Positions 178-11,913 are shown, counted from the first letter of the stretch. The stretch: DNA of 64,000 nucleotides from Candidatus Moanibacter sp. (GCA_965226025.1 CBDDCD010000002.1:2662216-2726215), one strand, 5' to 3'. Numbers and translations are program-made. The notes: generated from the letters alone by a model not told the origin.

Positions 178-1332
178 TTAGGGTGACGGAATGCGACACG
201 GCCGGGCCGCGGCGCCGTCGCGTGCGGATTCAAGCATGGCCTCGATGACGGCGACGTCACGCAGTCCCTCTTCAGGTGTGCTTGGGCTCTGGATCGGTTC
301 GTCCGAACCCAGCGACTCAAAGAAGCCCTTCAGCGTCTCGTAAACGCCCCCTTTGTTCCACGGATCCTCGGGGAAATGGTAGGTCCTGTTTCCGGTGCGG
401 CAGTGCACTTGCAGATAGCCGGACTTGAAGTGAGCGTGAACGGCGCCTCGGGAGCCCACCACACTTAGCTCCAGCTGATCGTTGTCCTGTTTCCGGGCAG
501 CGAAAGAGAGATCAAAGCTGCCCTCGACCCCGCTTTCGAAGCGGAGGTGGGCGTGGAGTGAATCTGCCGGCGGTAGGTGGGTCAGGCGCTGGCTGGTCTG
601 GGCGTTCACCTGTTCGACCTCGCCAACAACCTTGCGCAGCAGGGCTACGAAGTGTACCCCGACATCGAGCAGGTGGCCGCCTTGGTAGCTCGGCTGACCC
701 CTCCAGCCCTGGTCTCGGTTGGGCGGGAAGAAGAAGAGTCGACGGAACCGGATGAGCTGCGGCTCGCCAATCTCACCTCCCCGCACGATCTCCTCTAGCC
801 GGCGAACGCTCTTCTTGAAGCGCCAGTTTTCGCCCACAGCCCAGATCCGAGGGCGGGAGAGATTCCGGTGGATATTGAGAAGCCTGAGTCCTTCTTCCAC
901 GCTTGGAGCACAGGGTTTCTCGCTGAAAACGTGCTTTCCCGCACCTAGCGCTGCTTCGATGGCGTCGGGCATGGCAGGTATGGGAAGGACCAGGTCGACG
1001 ACATCAATCTCTTTGTCGCAGAAGAGCTCCGCCAGATCTGTGGACCGCTGGATCCTCGGTCTGCCGAGTTGCCGGGCCGCTCGGGCGAGAGAGTCCTCCG
1101 AGCGGCTGCAGAGAGCCGCGAACTCGAGCAGGCCCTGGTTCTCCAACCTTTGCAGAGCCGCGAAGTGCGCCACCCGGGCGAACCAGCCGCAACCCACCAG
1201 CGCCAGCCGGGGCCGCTCCCCGACTGGCGGAGCACCGCGGCGCAGGGAGAAACGAGTCCGCTCCCAGTAATCGACCGCGTGAAGTCCGAACTTGACTGGG
1301 GTGTGGCGGAGCCTTAGCCACCACGGATTCAC
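178..1332 (-). CDS. Gfo/Idh/MocA-family NAD(P)-dependent oxidoreductase
   Basis: 384-aa ORF. N-terminal Rossmann-type motif RPRLALVGCGWFARVAHFAAL, followed by a C-terminal alpha/beta region typical of this family. Confidence 0.8.
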   Translation of the reverse strand: MNPWWLRLRHTPVKFGLHAVDYWERTRFSLRRGAPPVGERPRLALVGCGWFARVAHFAALQRLENQGLLEFAALCSRSEDSLARAARQLGRPRIQRSTDLAELFCDKEIDVVDLVLPIPAMPDAIEAALGAGKHVFSEKPCAPSVEEGLRLLNIHRNLSRPRIWAVGENWRFKKSVRRLEEIVRGGEIGEPQLIRFRRLFFFPPNRDQGWRGQPSYQGGHLLDVGVHFVALLRKVVGEVEQVNAQTSQRLTHLPPADSLHAHLRFESGVEGSFDLSFAARKQDNDQLELSVVGSRGAVHAHFKSGYLQVHCRTGNRTYHFPEDPWNKGGVYETLKGFFESLGSDEPIQSPSTPEEGLRDVAVIEAMLESARDGAAARPCRIPSP

Positions 1333-1415
1333 GGTAATTGGGATCTCCTTAGCACGAAAAACTTACACCCGACTACCCCCAGTAGAGCTACGGCGAGGCA
1401 TGGAATTTCCGGACT

Positions 1416-1512
1416 AGGAGTCTGTCGGCCTTTAAGCTTTGTAACACCGTTCAGCTTCAGATCGACGGGTTAAGGTTGTAAATGTGGACCCATCTCATAC
1501 CGACAGTTTCCT
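1416..1512. repeat. Family-E hairpin repeat
   Basis: Arms AGGAGTCTGTCGG (1416-1428) and CCGACAGTTTCCT (1500-1512) are reverse complements. The same arm consensus recurs at 3320, 11987, 13164 and 37795. Confidence 0.75.
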
Positions 1513-1516
1513 TTCA

Positions 1517-3284
1517 AGAAAATGAAACTGAGAATTGAGACGATTTGTCATTACTTTCCAAGGTCTTCCGAAATTCTGGAGGTATACATTCATTTTCTTA
1601 TTGCTAGGAGTCTTATAGTAGCTCCAAGTTATTCATCAGTGGGGCCGAGTGGAGCCGTAGGAGTAACTCGGCGAGGCCCCATTGTGAGTAACTTGGCAGA
1701 AGCTGGGTTGGCTATGAGGCAAGGAGTTTGTTTCTCTAGAGGAGTTAATTTTCAAAGGCGGCCGTCCACTACGAACTTAGGAGGCAGTCGTGAGACGACT
1801 TCCGACAGAATTTCGAGTAGACGGCTTGCCTGGATGACCGATAACGAACCCTCAGTTTGTATCCTCATAGCAGGATCCACTATAAGAACTTCGCCTGGAC
1901 ATCCAGCGCCTTTGAAAACCACAAAACGAATAAAACAGAAGGGAAGGTAATTGATCAAAGGGATGCAGAAAAGCGAAAAAACTAATCCATACAGTGTGGT
2001 TATAGGGATCGATTGGGCGGATCAGAAAAATGATCTTTGGATGATCGAGAGGGAAACGGCAGGAGGGAGTCACCGGCAGGTGGCTCAGGATGCGATAGCG
2101 TTGCATGGTTTTGCCGTGGAGATGAGAGAAAGGTATGGGCGTGAGGGAAAGCGCGTCGCCATCGTGGTGGATCAGAAGCGTGGCGGGTTGATCAATTTTC
2201 TGATCGGATTGGAGTTTGTCGATATCTATCCGGTGCATGCGGCCAGTGCGAAGGATTATCGACAGGCATTGTATCCTTCCAGGGCCAAGAGCGATCCGGT
2301 CGATGCGCAATTGCACGCGGAATTTTTCCTCAAACATCCCGAGCACTTTGAGAAGTGTCTGAGACCGGACAGTGTGGAGACGCGCGAGCTCAACCTGTTG
2401 TGTGAGGACCGGCGTGGATTCGTCGATCAGGCGACTCGCTTCGAGCAGCAATTGTGCAGTTGTCTGAAGCAGTATAACCCATTGGTGTTGAAACTGTTCG
2501 ATGACTTGGGCAGTGCTATGTGTCTGCGCTTTGTTCTACGCTGGCCGACGCTTAAGAAGGTCAAGAGCGCATCGGCGCAAGGGTTGCGAAAGTTCTTTTA
2601 TAAGCATAACAGTCGCAGCGCCGCGAAAATCCAGGAGCGCCTGGAGTTGATCGGCCGGGAAGAGGCCTTGACCGAGGATCCCGCGACTCTGGAGGCGTTC
2701 AGTCGCAAAGCGCAGACTCTGGCCAAACAGCTTTTGGCCCTGCAACCGCAGATCGAGGCCTACGAGGAGCGTATCAAGGAACTTTTTCACACCCATCCCG
2801 ATGCCCCTGTGTTCAGCGGCCTTCCCGGAGCCGGCGAGGCCCTCAGCCCTCGGCTGCTGTGCGCCTTTGGGACCGATCGATCGCGTTTCGAAACGGCCCG
2901 GAACATGACCCAGTGGAATGGTTCGGCTCCAGTCACCATCAGCAGCGGTCAGCACAAAAAGAGCAGCCAGGCAAAACGACTGGTCACCTGGCGGTGGTCC
3001 GCGCCCACCTTTGTCCGCCAGAGCTTTGTTGAATTTGCCGCCCATTCGATCCGAAACTGCGACTGGGCCAACACCTACTATCAAATTAAAAAAGAACAGG
3101 GCAAATCCCGCCAAACCATCCTTCGAGCGCTCGCTCTGAAGTGGACCCGCATTCTCTTTCGCTGCTGGCAAAATAACCAGAATTACGACGAGCACAGATA
3201 CCTCGAATCACTCCAAAGGCGCGGTTCACCGGTATGGCATAGACTCCAGCAACTAAACGGCCACGCCCTCTAAACAGAAAATGA
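1517..3284 (+). mobile_element. IS110-family insertion sequence (approximate bounds)
   Basis: Transposase ORF preceded by about 425 bp of AT-richer non-coding DNA. A 9-bp direct repeat AGAAAATGA sits at 1517-1525 and 3276-3284. No terminal inverted repeats were seen, which is usual for IS110. Confidence 0.45.
1951..3273 (+). CDS. IS110-family DEDD transposase/recombinase
   Basis: 440 aa. N-terminal RuvC-like region (SVVIGIDWADQKNDLW, DPVDAQLHAEFF) and C-terminal motif FSGLPGAGEALSPRLLCAFG. The first codon is TTG; an ATG lies 12 nt downstream. Confidence 0.85.
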   Translation: MIKGMQKSEKTNPYSVVIGIDWADQKNDLWMIERETAGGSHRQVAQDAIALHGFAVEMRERYGREGKRVAIVVDQKRGGLINFLIGLEFVDIYPVHAASAKDYRQALYPSRAKSDPVDAQLHAEFFLKHPEHFEKCLRPDSVETRELNLLCEDRRGFVDQATRFEQQLCSCLKQYNPLVLKLFDDLGSAMCLRFVLRWPTLKKVKSASAQGLRKFFYKHNSRSAAKIQERLELIGREEALTEDPATLEAFSRKAQTLAKQLLALQPQIEAYEERIKELFHTHPDAPVFSGLPGAGEALSPRLLCAFGTDRSRFETARNMTQWNGSAPVTISSGQHKKSSQAKRLVTWRWSAPTFVRQSFVEFAAHSIRNCDWANTYYQIKKEQGKSRQTILRALALKWTRILFRCWQNNQNYDEHRYLESLQRRGSPVWHRLQQLNGHAL

Positions 3285-3319
3285 GTACTATTTTAAAAAA
3301 TCCCTTGACGGACCACCTC

Positions 3320-3384
3320 AGTTTTCTGTCGGACGAGCTCTTCTAATTGCACAGCAATCGAATCACAAAGTCCGACAGACTCCT
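3320..3384. repeat. Family-E hairpin repeat (short loop)
   Basis: AGTTTTCTGTCGGAC (3320-3334) pairs with GTCCGACAGACTCCT (3370-3384). Confidence 0.75.
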
Positions 3385-3401
3385 AGCGCAAAACACGCCG
3401 C

Positions 3402-4597
3402 TTACAGATTCAGATCCCACCCGTGGATATCCTCAAACAAGCATGTCCCATCGAAGGCCACGAATCCGATCCTCCCGGAGAACGGGTCTGGCATGCGATA
3501 GGTCTGCACGTAGTAATCATCAATGTAGAACTCGAAGAAGTCGCCGCGCGCGATGAGGCGGAAAGAATGTCTTTCCCCGTGCCGAACGCCGCAATAGGAG
3601 GCGTGCCCTAAGGGACCGACTGTATCTTCGCAAGCAAAGCTGCAGATGCCCTGCAGCTTCCCTGACCTGTCCACAACCAGTCCCTTGCCTGTGTCTGCGT
3701 AAATATCGCAATCGGTGATCCTATGGTCTGCGTAGGCCATGCTGCCCGTTCGTGTAGTTCCGAGAGAGTCGGGTATGATTGCGCAGCCCCGGCCTGGATA
3801 CTCTTCCAGATAGAAACCCGCGGCAGCCGCGTGTTGGTGTGACTCGATCCTTCCCCTGCGCTCCCGGACCGTGACATGCCCTTCGATCACGAATCCTCCA
3901 GTTCTGTCAAAAAGGCGATCGGTCATCACGATCGATCCATCGCGTCCGGCTGAGAGTAGAATCCTCTTCTCATCGCAGGAAAACGTGTCCCGATTCGTTC
4001 ACAGAAGTTGAGCTCCATGTGCTGGGAGGGAAGTTCTCCCCACTCAATCACCGGAGGCGGCAGGACTTCCCAGTTGATGCCGTCGAAGCTCTTCAACATT
4101 CCGGTACTCGGAGCTCCGACATCGTCTCGAACTTCGGAGGAGATGTAGCCGAGATAGACGCCTCGCCCACCTTCCTGTTCCTTGATGATGTAAATCTCGT
4201 CCCACCGTTCACGGTAGAATTTACAGTCCGGCACCACATCATACCGATCGCCAAGGTGTTTCCAATGCAGCAGGTCCTCCGATTGATAGATCTTGAAGTG
4301 AACGCCCTTCTCCTCGGTGGAGCAAGTGGGGTAGTAGTTGTGCTTATTGGCGATTCGGATGACCCCAAACCCTGCGTGGGCACCGGGGATGGGAACAAGA
4401 TCCCGCCCGATGAAGCGCCAGTGCACCCCGTCGTGGGAAACTGCGATATCGATGCCGATTGCTCGCCCACTCGGGTTTGATTGAGTCAGATGTCCGGTGC
4501 CGAAAAATGCGTAAAATCTGTCGTTGTCAAAGATTGTGAAGTTCTCCCAGGCCTTCTTGCCGGGATTCTTGAATTTGTCCACAGGTGATACGAACAT
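3402..4597 (-). pseudogene. Beta-propeller glycoside-hydrolase-like protein with C-terminal beta-sandwich (GH32/43-type fold), split by a 1-nt frameshift
   Basis: ORFs 3926..4597 and 3402..3929 overlap by 4 nt. The N-terminal part has blade motifs SHDGVHWRF, SEDLLHWKH and SFDGINWEV. The C-terminal part reads FRLIARGDFFEFYIDDYYV. The downstream frame stays open upstream of its nominal start and reads like protein (TFSCDEKRILLSAGRDGSIVMTD). Confidence 0.6.
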
Positions 4598-4697
4598 CTT
4601 GGTCTCCTAGGAGGAATCTGTCGGTAGAAACTACGTAGGTTCTGGGCGAGACAAAAATCTCCCCCTTTCGCAGCTCGTATCCAGCGCCACCTCCGTT

Positions 4698-6917
4698 TTA
4701 TTGTCCCCTTGCCTCACCTTCGCGCCGATAGCTCTGAAGCCGCTTTTTTAATGCCTCGGTCTGCTGTTCTGGCGGTAGCAAATTGATCGCGCGTTGAAGA
4801 GATTCCTCGGCCTTGTTGAACTGTCCCGCTGCGGCGTGCGCCATTGCCAAAGTATCGAATATGACGGGATCCGGTTCGCGGTTAAGCTGAGCAGCCCGCT
4901 CGGCGAGATCTATCGCCTCTTCAGGAGCTCGCAGGTCGGCGTCGCTGGTTGTGGCCAGGATCCATGCGGCAACGCCCAAGGGCGCTGCCCAATCGGGATT
5001 TAGGCGTCCCGCTTCCCGTAAGGCTTGCAAGGCCTCAGACTGCAGCTCGGCAGCCACCAAAGCGACTCCGAGATTGTAGTGGGCGACAGCGAAATCGGGC
5101 TGGGCGCGCACCGCTCGGCGATATTGGCCAATGGCTTCGACCAACCTGCCCTGCTGTTGCAGCAGGCGGCCCAAGAAGAGATGGGCTTGAGCCGATTCGG
5201 GATTTACGGAGAGGGCCTGACGGTAGTGTGCTGCCGCTTCTTCGAGCAGGCCTTGGCTTTGCAGAGCTTGACCGAGGTGAAGATAGGCTTCGGCCCGTTC
5301 GGGATCGAGTTTTAGGACTTCTCGAAAGTGGCCTATCGCATCGTCGAAGAGCTGCTCGCCGTTGAGGGCCAGACCCAGGTTAAAGTGCGCGTCGGTGTGA
5401 TTCGATTCATACTCGAGGACCTGTCTGAACTGGTCCATGGCTTCGGCAGTCTTTCCCGCCGCTTGGAGGGCGATGCCAAGATTGTTTCTCGCCTTGGGTT
5501 GGTGCGGATCCAGTTCCAGCGTCCGGCGATAGTGCGCGATCGCTTCATCAAGGGCGCCGATGCGCTCCAGGCTGTGCCCCAAAAACAATTCAATATACGC
5601 ATCGTCCGGTATTTCGAGAACCGCCTTCCGAAGGTACTTAACAACGTCGTGGTCAAACTCGCCCTTTTCGAACTGCCGCGCCAACCAGATCGCGGCGATA
5701 GGGCGCGGTTTTTCCTCCCAACGTCCGCGAAACGGAGCGGCCCGGGCCAGCTGCACATCTGCGGCCGCCCCTAGATGGGCAACATCCGCCAGCAGAGATG
5801 CGATATCAACGGGGCCGCGGTAGAGGGCCCGGATTCGGCCCTCGCCGTCAACGAGGACACTCGTGGGAACGGCCAATGGGACGACTCGATAGAAAATCGT
5901 GTCGAGAAGGATTTGAAGCTTGTTGAGCATGCGTGGCGTGGCTAGGCCGCTGGGAAACGGAAAACCGAGTTGCTGTAGATGTTTTCGGGCGTCCGAGGGT
6001 TCTGTTGCTTTGTTCTCATCCAAACCGTCCACACTCAAAGCAAGTATTTCGACTCCTACCTCCCACAGCCGATTTTCATTTTGCATCAGATCCCTGAGCT
6101 CCGCGTGGCAGGGCACACACCAGCTCGCCCAGAGGTTGACGAGAACAGGGCCGTCAAGATTTTCATTGAGCAAGATGTCGTTGCCTTGCCAGTCGCGGTA
6201 GGAGAGCGCCGGCAAGTCTGGCCCCGTCGGGAGGAAGATGCGGCCCGTGCTACTGGACGGTACGGGGTCGAGGCTAGAGGCGCGCAGGTTTACCTTTCTG
6301 GCGGGCGCCGGTAACGGTTGTACCAGGCCGCTTCCCTCCACAATCCGGTAGCGGCGATTGGCTTTTAAGCCGGTGAAGGTTTCCTCTGGGCCGCCCGGCC
6401 AGCGGACCACGAGACGGTCGATATCCGACCTGGAGCCCAACCCGAAATGCAGCCATTTGCTGGACTGGGCGACAAATCCGCTACCGGCGGAAACGGTCCT
6501 AACGAACCTCGCGGTTGCTTTCTGCCTGCCGCCCATCTGAATCTCGACGCGCGCTCCGATCGCGTCGCGATTGGCTGTTGTGCCCACCAGACGGAGGGCC
6601 AGATAGTGATTACTCGACGGCGTTTCGTTGCGCGCGAAACGCACTTGCGGAGCAGTGCGATTGGAGATCCACAGATCCAGGTCGCCGTCGCCGTCCCAAT
6701 CTACGGTCGCCACGCCTCGCCCGTCGTCGATAAAGTCCAGCCCGCTGGTTGCCGAGATGTTTGCGAACTTCCGTCCACCGGTGTTGAGGAAAACGCAGTT
6801 TCGCTCGTAACCGCTGAAGGAGCGTCCCTCTGCCAACATTCGGTAGAGAGTTTGGAATGCCTCTACATAGTCCCCTGCCGAATCCATTCCGACTTCTTTC
6901 GATGGTGATCGCGACAC
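4698..6917 (-). CDS. ASPIC/UnbV + TlpA-like thioredoxin-fold (WCVPC) + TPR-repeat protein; probably the C-terminal part of one CRTAC1-like protein
   Basis: ERNCVFLNTGGRKFANISATSGLDFIDDGRGVATVDWDGDGDLDLWISN and the ...VRWPGG region match ASPIC/UnbV. VNLWASWCVPCHAEL matches a redoxin. The C-terminal half is a series of TPR-like repeats. The nominal start is a GTG lying in frame only 7 codons after the TGA of the upstream ORF. Confidence 0.8.
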   Translation of the reverse strand: MSRSPSKEVGMDSAGDYVEAFQTLYRMLAEGRSFSGYERNCVFLNTGGRKFANISATSGLDFIDDGRGVATVDWDGDGDLDLWISNRTAPQVRFARNETPSSNHYLALRLVGTTANRDAIGARVEIQMGGRQKATARFVRTVSAGSGFVAQSSKWLHFGLGSRSDIDRLVVRWPGGPEETFTGLKANRRYRIVEGSGLVQPLPAPARKVNLRASSLDPVPSSSTGRIFLPTGPDLPALSYRDWQGNDILLNENLDGPVLVNLWASWCVPCHAELRDLMQNENRLWEVGVEILALSVDGLDENKATEPSDARKHLQQLGFPFPSGLATPRMLNKLQILLDTIFYRVVPLAVPTSVLVDGEGRIRALYRGPVDIASLLADVAHLGAAADVQLARAAPFRGRWEEKPRPIAAIWLARQFEKGEFDHDVVKYLRKAVLEIPDDAYIELFLGHSLERIGALDEAIAHYRRTLELDPHQPKARNNLGIALQAAGKTAEAMDQFRQVLEYESNHTDAHFNLGLALNGEQLFDDAIGHFREVLKLDPERAEAYLHLGQALQSQGLLEEAAAHYRQALSVNPESAQAHLFLGRLLQQQGRLVEAIGQYRRAVRAQPDFAVAHYNLGVALVAAELQSEALQALREAGRLNPDWAAPLGVAAWILATTSDADLRAPEEAIDLAERAAQLNREPDPVIFDTLAMAHAAAGQFNKAEESLQRAINLLPPEQQTEALKKRLQSYRREGEARGQ

Positions 6918-6937
6918 GACCTGCCGCCAAAAGAAAC
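6892..6937 (-). other. Candidate SECIS-like stem-loop immediately 3' of the in-frame UGA
   Basis: Hand-folded. mRNA positions +5..+15 pair with +40..+50; the upper stem is GGUC/GAUC; the 7-nt apical loop is GUGUCGC. Confidence 0.3.
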
Positions 6938-6938
6938 T

Positions 6939-8858
6939 TCACAAGTCTCCTGTGTCCGGAGCACTGACAAAACCGTTGGCCACTACGAGGTCTTCCCATC
7001 CGTCGTTGTTCAGATCTGAAAATACGGAACTCCAAGCCCAACGGCCCATGGTGACTCCGCAATCCACGCTGACGTCGGAAAAAGTGCCGTCACCGTTGTT
7101 GGCAAAAAGGCTGTTGCCGCGGGCCAGCCGCTGGAGCATCACTTTGGTCGACCGATCGGATTTTGGCTGAAATTGCGGGTGAAAGGTGATCCGCCCGCCG
7201 GCGGAAGACCACATGTTTCCGACGTAAAGATCCATCCACCCGTCGCGGTTGAAATCTCCCCAACTGGTCGACATGCCGGAAGCCATGTCCTCGATTCCGG
7301 CCTCGACCGCCACATTTACAAACCGCGCGCCGTCATTGCGATAGAGACAGTTGCGGCCGAAGTCGTTGGCCACGTAGAGGTCGGGATCTCCGTCTTGATC
7401 ATAGTCTTCCCAACTGGCGGCGAAGGTCCATCTGCGATTGTCGACATCCATCCCGGATTCCGATGTGACATTCGTGAATCTCCAATCGCCGTCGTTCCGC
7501 AACAACAGATTCTCCGGACCATTGTTTGCGTCGTGGTAGGGGACGGGATTGGGCACATCAAAGGTCAGTCCCGATCGCATGTAGCGGCTGACATAAATGT
7601 CGAGATCCCCGTCCAGATCGTAGTCGGCCGCGGCCAAACCGAAAGCTTGCGCCGCTGCCGGGACCACTTTACTCCGCTCGAATCGCCCGCTTCCGTCATT
7701 GGACAAAAACATCAGACCGGAACGCATCCCCAGGACGAGGTCTTCGTCGCCATCGTTGTCCAGGTCGACAAGGAGGGCGCAACGAGTCAGGTCCAACCAA
7801 TCGACCCGGGCCCATTCCGAGCGATCGCTGGCTGTACCGTCCGCATTCTGCAGCAACAGCCGATTAGGCAGTCCGCCATTCTGGCAGATGAAGACATCTT
7901 CCAAGCCATCGCCGTTAACATCACTCACGGCGAGTCCCTGATAAGCAGGTAGGTCGATATCCATCGTGGATTCGATTCGAGCCCCCCAGTCGAAAGTACC
8001 GCGCGACACTTGGGAGGTAAAGTCGTCGTTGTGGCCCACCACAGCCTCGGTACAATCCGAAAATAACACCTGGGTGTCGGACCTGACTTGCGTCTGCTCA
8101 TACTCGGTTAGGGTGATGGATTTAAGGAGCGGTGGTTGCGATTCGCTACCATCCGTCCAGCGGCACTTCCAGGTCGCGTGTTGTTCGAGGGAACCTGTTC
8201 CGTGAAGCCCGCTGACCGTAAAGTATTGCTCGGTGGTCGTCTCGCCGGCCTCGCCCTTGCGGACGCGGAATATTTTCGCCTCGAAGCGGACGTTGTTAGC
8301 CCCTTCGAACGGTGCCGCGAGATCCGTGAGGGCCTTTGCCAGGCCATCCGCGCCGTGATGACTTTCGCCGTCTTGAATCGCTTCCCCGGGGCCCGGCCAC
8401 CGCTTGACGGTGATGGCGCGGTCTTCAAACACTTTGCCCAGATTTCGGGGGAGCAGGTAGGTGCAGGAGAACTCCGGCGCTGTCAGAGTCTCCAAATTCG
8501 CCCGACTTATTTTCGATGGTTCAAACAGTAGTTCGCCGATGCGCTTTAGCTGGTCGCTTGCGAGGCCGGCGAATACTTCCGAATCCCATCCATCCGCTGC
8601 CGGATCGTCCGTCTCGGGCACCCGCCGCGAAGGCTCGTCGGGCTGGCGAGCCGGCGATGGATCTTGGGCAGATGTGACCTGGCCGACTAAGAAAAGAACC
8701 GGCAGTCCGGCCACCGCCAGTCCACGCAATACGCGGCTCCCCGACCGTAGCGATCCCTCTTTTTTGCCGCTGGTTCGACCGAAACACCTAGGCTTCTGCC
8801 CAACTGTCGCCATGTAAACAGGTTGCTTCGCCGTCAGGAAATTACAATCCCCATTCAA
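6939..8858 (-). CDS. FG-GAP/VCBS-repeat protein; probably the N-terminal part of one CRTAC1-like protein, ending at an in-frame TGA
   Basis: Repeated Ca-binding-type motifs: DVNGDGLEDVFICQNGG, DLDNDGDEDLVLG, DYDLDGDLDIYVS, DYDQDGDPDLYVANDFGRNCLYRNDG and DLNNDGWEDLVVANG. An N-terminal hydrophobic signal-like segment is present. Confidence 0.8.
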   Translation of the reverse strand: MNGDCNFLTAKQPVYMATVGQKPRCFGRTSGKKEGSLRSGSRVLRGLAVAGLPVLFLVGQVTSAQDPSPARQPDEPSRRVPETDDPAADGWDSEVFAGLASDQLKRIGELLFEPSKISRANLETLTAPEFSCTYLLPRNLGKVFEDRAITVKRWPGPGEAIQDGESHHGADGLAKALTDLAAPFEGANNVRFEAKIFRVRKGEAGETTTEQYFTVSGLHGTGSLEQHATWKCRWTDGSESQPPLLKSITLTEYEQTQVRSDTQVLFSDCTEAVVGHNDDFTSQVSRGTFDWGARIESTMDIDLPAYQGLAVSDVNGDGLEDVFICQNGGLPNRLLLQNADGTASDRSEWARVDWLDLTRCALLVDLDNDGDEDLVLGMRSGLMFLSNDGSGRFERSKVVPAAAQAFGLAAADYDLDGDLDIYVSRYMRSGLTFDVPNPVPYHDANNGPENLLLRNDGDWRFTNVTSESGMDVDNRRWTFAASWEDYDQDGDPDLYVANDFGRNCLYRNDGARFVNVAVEAGIEDMASGMSTSWGDFNRDGWMDLYVGNMWSSAGGRITFHPQFQPKSDRSTKVMLQRLARGNSLFANNGDGTFSDVSVDCGVTMGRWAWSSVFSDLNNDGWEDLVVANGFVSAPDTGDL

Positions 8859-8963: not shown

Positions 8964-9971
8964 ATGCGGCTAAGGCGATTGAAGATATGGGGAGCGAGCG
9001 CGGTATACCACTGTATCAGCCGTAGCGTAAACGGGGAGTTTCTGTTCGATAGGTTGGCCAAGGAGCGGTTGCGCCGGCAGCTGTGGCAAGTGGCGGACTT
9101 TTCCGGGGTGGAGGTGCTGACTTACGGTCTGATGAGTAATCATTTTCATGTTCTGATCAAGGTGCCGAACAGGGAAGCGGTGGTTGTATCGGACCGGGAG
9201 CTGGTGCGCCGTTACGCGGTGCTCTACCCGGAACCGAGTCCCTATGAGCCGATGACGGTGAAGTATCTGGCCGGGGCATTGAAGCGGGGAGGCGAGGAGG
9301 CGAAGCTGTTGAGGAGACGACTCCTGGCGCGGATGCATGATGTCTCCGAGTTCATGAAGACTTTGAAGCAGCGCTACACCATCTGGTATAACCAGACCCA
9401 CGCACGGTATGGGACATTGTGGGCGGAGCGGTTCAAGAGCACTGTAGTGGAAGGGAAGGAAGCGGCCCTGCGAGTTACGGCGGCCTATATCGATCTGAAT
9501 CCGGTACGAGCCGGGATAGTAGAAGATCCGAAGGACTACCGCTGGAGCGGGTACGGAGAGGCTGTGGGAGGGAATCTTGAAGCGAGAAAAGGAATCGCTG
9601 AAGCGGTTGGAGACTCGTATGGCACGCCTCTGAAGTGGAGGAAGGCATCACGGGAATATCGACAGCTGCTCTATTGCACGGGGTCTTTGGGCGTTCCTCA
9701 GGAATCGCTTCGGGGAAGAATACCGACTGAAGCATGGATCAAAGTGATGGAAGAGGGAGGCAAGCTGCCGGTGGCGGCGGCTCTGAGGTGTCGAGTGCGC
9801 TATTTCACGGACGGCGCGGTCCTTGGATCGAAGGAGTATGTGGAGAGTATCTTCTCCCAATATCGAGAACAATTCGGGAGGAGACGTCGAAGTGGAGCCA
9901 GGAGGATGAAGGGCAGCGACTGGGAAGGATTGACGGTGATACGCGACCTGCGAAAGCAGGTGTTCGGCTAG
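8964..9971 (+). CDS. IS200/RAYT-like HUH (Y1) transposase-family protein
   Basis: YHCISRSVNGEFLF; HUH motif in LMSNHFHVLIKVP; tyrosine region YIDLNPVRAGIVEDPKDYRWSGY. Confidence 0.75.
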   Translation: MRLRRLKIWGASAVYHCISRSVNGEFLFDRLAKERLRRQLWQVADFSGVEVLTYGLMSNHFHVLIKVPNREAVVVSDRELVRRYAVLYPEPSPYEPMTVKYLAGALKRGGEEAKLLRRRLLARMHDVSEFMKTLKQRYTIWYNQTHARYGTLWAERFKSTVVEGKEAALRVTAAYIDLNPVRAGIVEDPKDYRWSGYGEAVGGNLEARKGIAEAVGDSYGTPLKWRKASREYRQLLYCTGSLGVPQESLRGRIPTEAWIKVMEEGGKLPVAAALRCRVRYFTDGAVLGSKEYVESIFSQYREQFGRRRRSGARRMKGSDWEGLTVIRDLRKQVFG

Positions 9972-10081: not shown

Positions 10082-11913
10082 ACGCTCTTCCCAGGGCGGG
10101 ATTTTTTCGTATAATGGTGGGCCATCATGTTTCTGAGGTGTAATCGTCGGCGCAAAGATGGCAAAGAGCACTACTATTGGAATATCGTTGAGAACAAGCG
10201 TGTCAGCGGGGGGCGGGTGGTCCAAAGACAGGTCCTCTACCTTGGAGAGATCAACGATAGCCAACACGAAGCGTGGCGCAAGAGCATCGAGATTTTCGAA
10301 GAGGGCAGGGAAAGACCCGAACAGGTGGCGCTGTTTCCGGAAGATCGTGCCCCGCCTGTGGGCGACGAAAGTATTGTTAGAATACGGCTCAAAGATCTCA
10401 GGATCGAGAAGCCGCGGCAATGGGGAGGGTGCTGGCTTGGGTGCGTTCTATATGAGCAGTTGGGACTGGGAGAATTCTGGCGGGAGCGTCTCAGACCCTC
10501 CCGTCAGGGTACCCGCTGGGCCCATGTGCTGCAGACCCTGGTGGTTTACCGGCTGATGGCACCGGGAAGCGAGTGGCGGCTGCATCGGGAATGGTATGAG
10601 CGAAGCGCGATGGGCGATCTGATGGGGGAAGACTTTGGGATCGCCGAGAAGAACACGCTCTATCGCTGCCACGATCGATTGCTCAGGCACAAGAAGGCCC
10701 TGTTCAGGCACCTGACCGAGAGGTGGAGCGATCTGTTCAATGCCCGTTACGAGATTTTGCTATACGATCTGACGAGCACCTATTTTGAGTGCGATCCGAA
10801 CCAGGAGCCGGCGGCCTCGAGCCGACTGCGCAAGTTCGGCTACAGCCGCGATAAGCGACCTGACTGCGTGCAAGTGGTGATCGCCCTGGTGGTGACTTGT
10901 GAGGGCTTGCCGATTGCCTATGAGGTACTTCCGGGTAACACGCAGGATAAAACCACCTTAAAAGATTTTCTTTCTCGGGTGGAAGAGAACTACGGTAAGG
11001 CGAACCGGGTGTGGGTGATGGATCGGGGCATTCCGACCGAGGAAGTCTTGCAACAGATGCGCCAAAGCGAACCCAGGATCCACTATCTGGTGGGTACCCC
11101 GCGCTCCTGGCTGGGTCGCTTCGAGCAGTCGTTGCTGCAGAAGGATTGGAAGCAGTTGCGTCCCGGTATCGAGGTGAAACTCCTCAGCGAGGGAGGTGAA
11201 ACCTACGTTCTGGCTAAAAGCGACGATCGGGTGCGCAAAGAAAAAAACATGCGCCTGCGTCGTTTACGCCGTCTTATCGAGGCGCTCAAGAAGCTGCGTG
11301 AGAGCAAACGGCGCTACCAACGCGATACCATCCTGATCAAACTGGGCGAAGCCAAAAAGGAGGCCGGTCCCCGGATCTTTGGATTACTCGACATCGAGAT
11401 CGCCCCCAAGGGCGCCCCCACTGAAAAGCCGCCTTTGAGCTTCCGGTTGAACTTAAAAAAATACCGCCAAGCCTATCGCCGCGAAGGCCGCTATCTGTTG
11501 CGCAGCACCCTCAGTGCCGAGAACCCCGAGCAACTCTGGCGCCTTTACCTGCAGCTCACTGAGATCGAGCAAGTCTTCAAGGAAATCAAGAACGACCTTT
11601 CCATCCGCCCCATCCATCATCAGAGAGATGATCGCATCGAGGCGCACATCTTTATCAGCTTCCTTGCTTACTCTCTGTGGGTCACCCTGAAACGTCGACT
11701 CTACCCGATGGCTCCGGGACTGACCCCAGCCGAGGTGCTCTCCAAAATGGCGGCCATCCAAATGCTCGATGTGAAACTGCCCACCACCGACGGACGCACC
11801 GTTGTGCTTACCCGTTACACCGAGCCCGGTGAGGACCAAAAGCTACTACTGAACCGGTTACACCTCGAACTTCCTCCCCAACCACCCCCCCAAATCGAAT
11901 CCAAATAACCCCT
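10082..11913 (+). mobile_element. IS1634/IS4-like element (bounds inferred from a flanking 16-bp direct repeat)
   Basis: CCTGTAGTGTAGACCT occurs at 10066-10081 and 11914-11929, bracketing the transposase ORF. I could not identify terminal inverted repeats. Confidence 0.4.
10127..11908 (+). CDS. IS1634-family DDE transposase
   Basis: 593 aa. The characteristic N-terminus MFLRCNRRRKDGKEHYYWNIVENKRV is followed by a long DDE-type core. Confidence 0.85.
   Translation: MFLRCNRRRKDGKEHYYWNIVENKRVSGGRVVQRQVLYLGEINDSQHEAWRKSIEIFEEGRERPEQVALFPEDRAPPVGDESIVRIRLKDLRIEKPRQWGGCWLGCVLYEQLGLGEFWRERLRPSRQGTRWAHVLQTLVVYRLMAPGSEWRLHREWYERSAMGDLMGEDFGIAEKNTLYRCHDRLLRHKKALFRHLTERWSDLFNARYEILLYDLTSTYFECDPNQEPAASSRLRKFGYSRDKRPDCVQVVIALVVTCEGLPIAYEVLPGNTQDKTTLKDFLSRVEENYGKANRVWVMDRGIPTEEVLQQMRQSEPRIHYLVGTPRSWLGRFEQSLLQKDWKQLRPGIEVKLLSEGGETYVLAKSDDRVRKEKNMRLRRLRRLIEALKKLRESKRRYQRDTILIKLGEAKKEAGPRIFGLLDIEIAPKGAPTEKPPLSFRLNLKKYRQAYRREGRYLLRSTLSAENPEQLWRLYLQLTEIEQVFKEIKNDLSIRPIHHQRDDRIEAHIFISFLAYSLWVTLKRRLYPMAPGLTPAEVLSKMAAIQMLDVKLPTTDGRTVVLTRYTEPGEDQKLLLNRLHLELPPQPPPQIESK

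Follow-up and report, generated by a model that had tools for sequence, protein, structure and literature searches.

Background

The majority of known bacterial selenoproteins are either small proteins of the thioredoxin fold or metalloenzymes that are cytoplasmic or Tat-exported, and selenocysteine (Sec) is usually the catalytic residue. In the selenocysteine insertion sequence (SECIS) of fdhF, the G and U of the loop and the spacing of 11 nucleotides (nt) are functionally important. PilB of Neisseria is a fusion of TlpA-like, MsrA and MsrB domains, in which a catalytic redox domain is combined with a recycling thioredoxin-like domain. For the CRTAC1/ASPIC fold we know of no described biochemistry, in vertebrates or elsewhere. 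The present analysis concerns a gene with this fold in a stretch of 64,000 nt from Candidatus Moanibacter sp. (GCA_965226025.1 CBDDCD010000002.1:2662216-2726215), which is called the window below and to which all coordinates refer unless another sequence is named. The gene is located at 8813..4698 on the minus strand and contains a single in-frame UGA. It is very probably one gene for a selenoprotein of 1,371 residues, in which UGA-625 is read as Sec. This reading is based on an alignment column in which UGA is the only stop codon, an open frame beyond it, a covarying hairpin, the existence of Cys forms, the sel genes adjoining one orthologue, and the presence of the codon in two independent assemblies. 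That the inserted residue is Sec, rather than another amino acid, is what we infer from these data.

The family is an essentially uncatalogued one among bacterial selenoproteins, with a SECIS of the fdhF type. The only earlier mention found is in Kim et al. 2016 (PMC4807772, Table S9), where four genes with ASPIC/UnbV and FG-GAP domains are given as selenoprotein candidates; an earlier note on the present DNA, made from the sequence alone, had known of no described selenoprotein in this family and is corrected by these four entries. Neither FG-GAP nor VCBS, ASPIC or CRTAC1 appears among the 119 prokaryotic selenoprotein families listed in a 2026 review. The deep-Sep and BSepDB papers make no mention of FG-GAP, ASPIC, VCBS or CRTAC, and the Global Ocean Sampling (GOS) paper makes none of 'propeller', 'repeat' or 'integrin'. 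A full-text literature search for links of selenoprotein or selenocysteine with FG-GAP or CRTAC1 gave nothing relevant, and neither the literature searched nor the 119-family catalogue lists CRTAC1 among the selenoproteins. None of the NCBIfam selenoprotein models scored above its cut-off against the product.

Results

The open reading frames (ORFs) 6939..8858 and 4698..6917 on the minus strand belong to one frame, and between them lie only the TGA at 6941..6939 and the seven sense codons of SFFWRQV. The earlier note had described this arrangement, and translation confirmed it: the unbroken product reads ...NGFVSAPDTGDL up to the stop and SFFWRQVVSRSPS... after it. The note had counted 1,386 codons; from the ATG at 8813 the product has 1,371 residues. 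This very long same-frame pair (676 + 746 codons) split by one stop is the sole case in the window, and a scan of the window for further same-frame ORF pairs parted by a stop yielded no other convincing Sec candidate.

With the fused core as query, a protein search gave 7,671 relatives at E <= 1e-20. Among the best 120 protein homologues of these 7,671, 91 terminate exactly at '...DL'; they are about 340-790 residues long and 53-100% identical to the query over the aligned part. Loci were also collected by scanning one genome per GTDB species with peptide motifs taken from the N-terminal half only, so that the scan was blind to the stop. The 80 loci obtained are from Planctomycetota (34), Verrucomicrobiota (30) and Acidobacteriota (12), with four unclassified or oddly binned. 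The aligned column, represented by 81 sites in the 80 loci, is occupied by TGA at 80 sites (79 loci) and by TGC, a Cys codon, at one (L024, from Ca. Polarisedimenticolia), and never by TAA or TAG. When 241 million metagenome records were scanned for TAA or TAG in the context of the site, only two matches were obtained, both by chance in unrelated sequence.

Directly after TGA, the peptide S[FV][FY]WRQVVSxSP is conserved across related loci. The frame beyond TGA is open for about 430-820 codons in loci that are not cut by a contig end, with few exceptions, and it covers the UnbV_ASPIC domain, the WxxWCxxC motif and the tetratricopeptide repeats (TPRs). The true gene ends at the related loci comprise TGA, TAA and TAG. 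Since TGA is among them, UGA is also an ordinary stop in these organisms, and a reassigned code, in which UGA would stand for Trp or Gly, was rejected on this ground. Two paralogous gene copies about 4 kb apart are present in L065 (at 3015 and 7027) and in L079 (at 4237 and 8329), all four with TGA; the second L079 copy extends into masked sequence.

Downstream of the UGA lies a short hairpin (Table 1), whose consensus across loci is GCGRCA / GGUCG / UGYCGC for the 5' arm, loop and 3' arm, respectively. The nucleotides up to nt 31, counted from the U of UGA, are near-invariant across loci, and the loop nucleotides G22 and U23 do not vary at all. Among 76 distinct sequences, 99.8% of the 456 pair cells are paired. 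Four of the six pairs are without variation and two covary: pair 18:28 is GU in 38 sequences, AU in 29, GC in five, CG in two and UA in one, and pair 20:26 is AU in 73 and GC in three. None of the shuffles matched the observed pairing or covariation score, and the pairing drops to 12-67% when the partner columns are slid. At 18:28, a synonymous change in an Arg codon is coupled to an exchange among Ser, Pro, Ala and Thr three codons on, which argues for selection on the RNA. Synonymous sites are frozen within the hairpin, as seen in Val+8 (GTG in 71 of 71), Ser+9 (TCG in 68 of 68) and Val+7 (GTC in 71 of 79); at two codons past it, Ser+11 and Pro+12, all four codons are used (about 1.9 bits). 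Folded alone, the hairpin has an energy of -8.9 kcal/mol. In the Cys form L024, two of the six pairs are lost.

The earlier note had drawn a longer SECIS-like fold. A stem-loop with G and U in its loop does exist 3' of the UGA, but the conserved element is the 17-nt hairpin, which overlaps the long fold and is paired differently. RNAfold of the window gave a 9-bp lower stem, GG/CC pairs and an upper stem, close to the fold as drawn; its energy, however, is ordinary (z = -0.75, with 36 of 200 shuffles as good). The upper stem GGUC/GAUC is poorly conserved, with 66.8% of cells paired in the 76 distinct sequences, which is the shuffle level, and the 3' stretch that forms the other side of the lower stem lacks conservation from locus to locus. 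For these three reasons the long fold was rejected as the functional element. An Rfam search of window positions 6700-7100 gave no match.

Among all the loci, tblastn with E. coli SelA, SelB and SelD found a match in L008 only. This locus, in a Verrucomicrobiales metagenome-assembled genome (NYWG01000027.1, region 951-8548), carries an orthologue at 951-4811 with its TGA at 2835, and selD, selA and selB follow directly downstream (Table 1). The whole protein-coding Sec machinery is thus placed beside the selenoprotein gene; tRNA-Sec was not found in the locus. Kim et al. 2016 reported full sel gene sets in both planctomycetes listed with genes of this kind (PMC4807772). A search for conserved neighbours across the loci found none shared, the large clusters being alternative-frame ORFs of the gene itself.

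The residues that occupy the Sec column in relatives that read through were surveyed by HMMER, with a query of 261 residues centred on the site, among 1.84 billion cluster representatives. The top junction-spanning match is a Cys form (P0243, DLCSFFWRQVV, E 1e-105), and further Cys forms are P0258, P0275 and the TGC locus L024. In the other read-through relatives the column is occupied by E (18), S (16), D (14), A (6), N (5), M (4) and Q (3); Gly is found in P0005, and Trp is never found.

Two other sites vary together with this column in an alignment of 67 Sec forms and 51 read-through relatives. Cys at +48 is present in 54/67 Sec forms and 3/3 Cys forms, and in 6/48 of the relatives whose Sec column holds neither Sec nor Cys. 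The CxxC motif has both its Cys in 66/67, 1/3 and 8/48 of these groups, respectively. In the same alignment, several residues are near-fixed in the Sec forms only, namely, by their position relative to Sec625, Lys-445, Asn-103, Gln-64, Ser-43, Thr-37, Met-36, Ala-13, Ser+9, Ser+42 (67/67) and Glu+280. These residues may line the active site.

The features of the gene are listed in Table 1. An FG-GAP half, an ASPIC/UnbV half and a TlpA-like domain with WCVPC had been assigned to the protein in the earlier note, and Pfam bears out all three, the FG-GAP_3, FG-GAP, UnbV_ASPIC, AhpC-TSA and Redoxin matches being above the Pfam cut-offs. The propeller contains DxDxDG motifs at residues 298, 350, 397, 470, 520, 600 and 705, six before Sec and one after. 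The Sec codon is inside the propeller, between blades 6 and 7, and blade 7 is encoded past the stop; a true stop would therefore cut the propeller. In a profile search, the closest matches of the thioredoxin-fold domain are TlpA (1jfu, 2.5e-12) and ResA. The product also carries an N-terminal domain without assigned function ahead of the propeller. The putative signal peptide, as read from the translation, consists of a basic n-region and the hydrophobic GLAVAGLPVLFLVG, followed by TSA|QD, and the product is probably exported and extracytoplasmic.

Table 1. Positions of the gene, its parts and the sel genes of locus L008 (window coordinates, except for L008, where positions are those of the L008 locus)
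Feature	Position	Strand	Details
Whole gene	4698..8813	-	ATG 8813..8811 to TAA 4700..4698; 1,371 residues, UGA at codon 625
Putative signal peptide or N-terminal anchor, residues 1-49	8667..8813	-	read from translation
Seven-blade Ca-binding FG-GAP beta-propeller	6639..7961	-	Pfam FG-GAP_3 2.2e-38, FG-GAP 7e-21
UGA codon, very probably read as selenocysteine (Sec625)	6939..6941	-	context ...APDTGDL-U-SFFWRQVVSRSP...
Spacer from UGA to hairpin, 11 nt, AGUUUCUUUUG	6928..6938	-	codes S-F-F and part of W
SECIS element, 17-nt hairpin	6911..6927	-	nt 15-31 from U of UGA
SECIS 5' arm	6927..6922	-	GCGGCA
SECIS loop	6921..6917	-	GGUCG
SECIS 3' arm	6916..6911	-	UGUCGC
Cys673 (Sec+48), candidate resolving cysteine	6795..6797	-	motif YERNC; co-occurrence with Sec/Cys column
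UnbV_ASPIC domain	6348..6563	-	Pfam PF07593, E 4.9e-19
TlpA/ResA-like thioredoxin-fold domain	5826..6218	-	Pfam AhpC-TSA 42.6 bits (cut-off 26), Redoxin 28.9 (cut-off 26.6)
WASWCVPC, residues 895-902	6131..6108	-	Cys899 and Cys902 form CxxC
C-terminal TPR array	4704..5678	-	Pfam TPR_11, TPR_1, TPR_2 and related, E 1e-37 to 1e-39
L008 selD	5083-6111		53% identical to E. coli SelD
L008 selA	6111-7445		Pfam SelA, 1.4e-111
L008 selB	from 7475		tblastn match to E. coli SelB

An AlphaFold2 model of the 569-residue core, built on an alignment of 75 sequences, has a predicted local distance difference test score (pLDDT) of 93.2 and a predicted template modelling score (pTM) of 0.94. Its top fold match in the PDB by Foldseek is murine CRTAC1 (9etn_A, E 1.1e-26, template modelling score 0.66-0.68). 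CRTAC1 is also matched by profile at E 7.5e-31; phmmer of the core against the PDB gave no match, so that CRTAC1 is found by profiles only. In the model, Sec is at the N-terminus of a helix, two residues ahead of the helix FFWRQVVSR, and Cys673 begins the next beta-strand.

In the public assemblies, the gene calls divide the gene at TGA into products of 624 and about 729 residues. The false second gene in these calls (proteins P0121-P0240) commonly starts at the second Val codon of WRQVVS, mostly GTG; this start codon (6915-6917, minus strand) is inside the SECIS hairpin, and the products begin with MSQSP.... Database entries for the first halves bear the name 'VCBS' or 'FG-GAP repeat-containing protein', and those for the second halves the name 'ASPIC/UnbV domain-containing protein'. 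Two transposase ORFs are located just upstream of the gene, both on the plus strand: an IS200-like Y1 transposase at 8964-9971 (Pfam Y1_Tnp 3.4e-12), and a DDE transposase at 10127-11908 (DDE_Tnp_1 9.4e-16).

Discussion

The proposal of the earlier note, that the two halves are one polypeptide with UGA recoded as Sec by means of a SECIS, is supported by the UGA-only column, the Cys relatives, the fdhF-like hairpin and the sel genes of L008. Several observations weigh against it. The 80 loci scored best against a query of the Sec type, so that the Sec clade is over-represented among them. ARAGORN found no tRNA gene in the 64-kb window and no tRNA-Sec there or in 60 loci, and tblastn with E. coli SelA, SelB and SelD gave no match in the window. 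The minimum-free-energy fold of the window favours a pairing that competes with the 17-nt hairpin. As a negative control, six non-Sec relatives discriminate only partially, since part of the hairpin sequence is set by the peptide WRQVVS; they retain three to six of the six pairs. The closest non-Sec relative (L083, 1297-1338; P0013), 60% identical and on a contig of 3x coverage, has GAT (Asp) at the Sec column together with an intact hairpin (6/6 pairs, loop GGUGG). L083 may be a recent Sec-to-Asp conversion, and it gives a hint that Sec is replaceable by an acidic residue.

Most read-through relatives, moreover, have neither Sec nor Cys at the column, which is atypical of a thiol-type redox selenoprotein. 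The earlier note had looked to the homologues at this column for Cys or Sec, and had held that non-Cys residues there would speak against recoding. The closest read-through relative does have Cys, while the distant paralogues have E, S, D, A or N. The residues of the distant paralogues are judged to be outweighed, because the closest read-through relative is the Cys form and because Sec or Cys at the column co-occurs with Cys+48.

Decoding of UGA without Sec is the strongest of the other explanations, and it is nevertheless very improbable. A near-cognate or suppressor tRNA (for Trp, Cys, Arg or Gly) would read through the codon, perhaps stimulated by the hairpin, and the full-length protein would be produced without selenium. 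The absence of Sec machinery from the window would agree with this, as would the tolerance of the column for E, S, D, A, N, M, Q and G. The hairpin, however, corresponds to the SelB-binding SECIS of fdhF in its position and in its apical GGUC, and such an element is Sec-specific and not a general read-through signal. The adjacency of selD-selA-selB to the orthologue in L008 also argues for Sec, as do the Cys forms, which co-occur with the partner Cys. Furthermore, Trp never occupies the column, though Gly does in P0005 and in the closest match of the 2016 paper, and TGA serves as an ordinary stop elsewhere in these genomes.

A genuine split gene is scarcely to be expected either. In such a case translation would stop at the UGA and restart at the GTG seven codons on (6917), and the two polypeptides would assemble. 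Two genes are indeed called everywhere, and the callers often start the second ORF at this second Val of WRQVVS; yet the GTG is constrained as part of the hairpin, and the codons that precede it encode a conserved peptide, which is contiguous in the read-through relatives. There is no spacer and no ribosome-binding site, the stop is never TAA or TAG, and the cut would divide the propeller ahead of blade 7.

The earlier note had also considered that the gene might be a nonsense pseudogene, or that TGA might stand in error for TGG or TGY, as could arise in sequencing or assembly. Both can be dismissed in spite of the frameshifts that the note reported elsewhere in the window and the metagenomic origin of the contig. 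TGA and its context are identical in two independent ENA metagenome assemblies of 6x and 18.7x coverage (two differences in 3,875 bases), which excludes a base-calling error, and 79 related loci in three phyla share this TGA, with strong purifying selection to either side of it.

If the gene is taken as one encoding a selenoprotein, UGA-625 would be decoded as Sec during translation, and the 17-nt hairpin, 11 nt past the UGA, would recruit SelB and Sec-tRNA(Sec) to the ribosome, by analogy with fdhF. In the protein, Sec625 would react with an oxidising substrate and then form a selenenylsulfide with Cys673. This selenenylsulfide would be recycled in cis by the CxxC motif, which in turn would be reduced by a membrane pathway of the DsbD/CcdA type. 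Such a redox relay, from Sec625 to Cys673 to CxxC, is put forward tentatively as the most likely role of the residue, because Cys+48 and CxxC co-occur with Sec; the location of Sec at a helix N-terminus in a confident model gives it further support.

It is also conceivable, though rather doubtful, that Sec625 is not a classical thiol redox residue but, in the active site of a CRTAC1-like propeller enzyme, binds a metal or acts as the catalytic nucleophile. The grounds for this are the occurrence of Glu, Asp, Ser, Asn, Gln, Met and Cys in the paralogues, all of which can serve as ligands or nucleophiles, and the Asp form with an intact SECIS hairpin. If this were true, the long-sought functional site of the entire CRTAC1/ASPIC family, vertebrate CRTAC1 included, would lie at this column. 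More generally, since Sec is usually the catalytic residue, its position here points to where the CRTAC1/ASPIC fold has a functional site.

Under the selenoprotein reading, a large and abundant family in Planctomycetota, Verrucomicrobiota and Acidobacteriota appears as two false genes in practically all of the database entries examined. Recognition of the Sec codon would allow the entries named 'VCBS/FG-GAP repeat protein' and 'ASPIC/UnbV domain protein' to be corrected, and would add a selenoprotein family to phyla with poorly charted selenoproteomes. The protein would also be of an unusual type, being a large, apparently secreted, multidomain beta-propeller selenoprotein. In addition, a very short and near-invariant fdhF-like SECIS may be handy for studies of SelB recognition outside Proteobacteria.

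Comparison with known systems

The four candidates of Kim et al. 2016 have the same domain content as the present protein, and all four are annotated as pairs of adjacent genes; for three of them a SECIS was reported, and the closest NCBI match has Gly at the aligned residue, as does P0005 here (PMC4807772). They occupy four rows of a supplementary table, with no alignment, SECIS model, distribution or discussion.

The upper hairpin of the E. coli fdhF SECIS (NC_000913.3) is also 17 nt long, spans nt 15-31 from the U of UGA and follows a spacer of 11 nt. Common to the two elements are the apical GCAGGUC..UG and the G and U of the loop. The present hairpin differs in having no bulged U17, in having a loop of 5 nt (GGUCG) instead of 4 nt plus the bulge, and in having no conserved lower stem.

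With CRTAC1 (murine CRTAC1, 9etn) the present protein shares the core of FG-GAP beta-propeller and UnbV/ASPIC domain, at an identity of 19%. Beyond this core it has the N-terminal domain, the TlpA-like CxxC domain and the TPRs. The Sec stretch is left unaligned with CRTAC1 by HMMER, so that the equivalent CRTAC1 residue cannot be read from the alignment.

The UGC-containing selenoproteins of the TlpA family and the WAxxUGC selenoproteins (Table 1 of the 2026 review) are extracytoplasmic redox proteins, as the present protein probably is, and they share with it a TlpA/ResA-like thioredoxin-fold domain; the thioredoxin domain of the present protein matches the model NF041054, 'ResA-like WAxxUGC motif-containing protein' (WAxxUGC_long), weakly (59.5 bits against a cut-off of 300). 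Those proteins have their Sec within the thioredoxin motif itself. In the present protein this motif has Cys at both positions (WASWCVPC), and the Sec belongs to the propeller, 274 residues further upstream.

In Neisseria PilB, the catalytic domains have no sequence relationship to the present protein, and the analogy is a mechanistic one only. The proposed logic would nevertheless be the same in both, in that a TlpA-like CxxC domain in cis regenerates the catalytic Sec or Cys of its neighbour in the periplasm.

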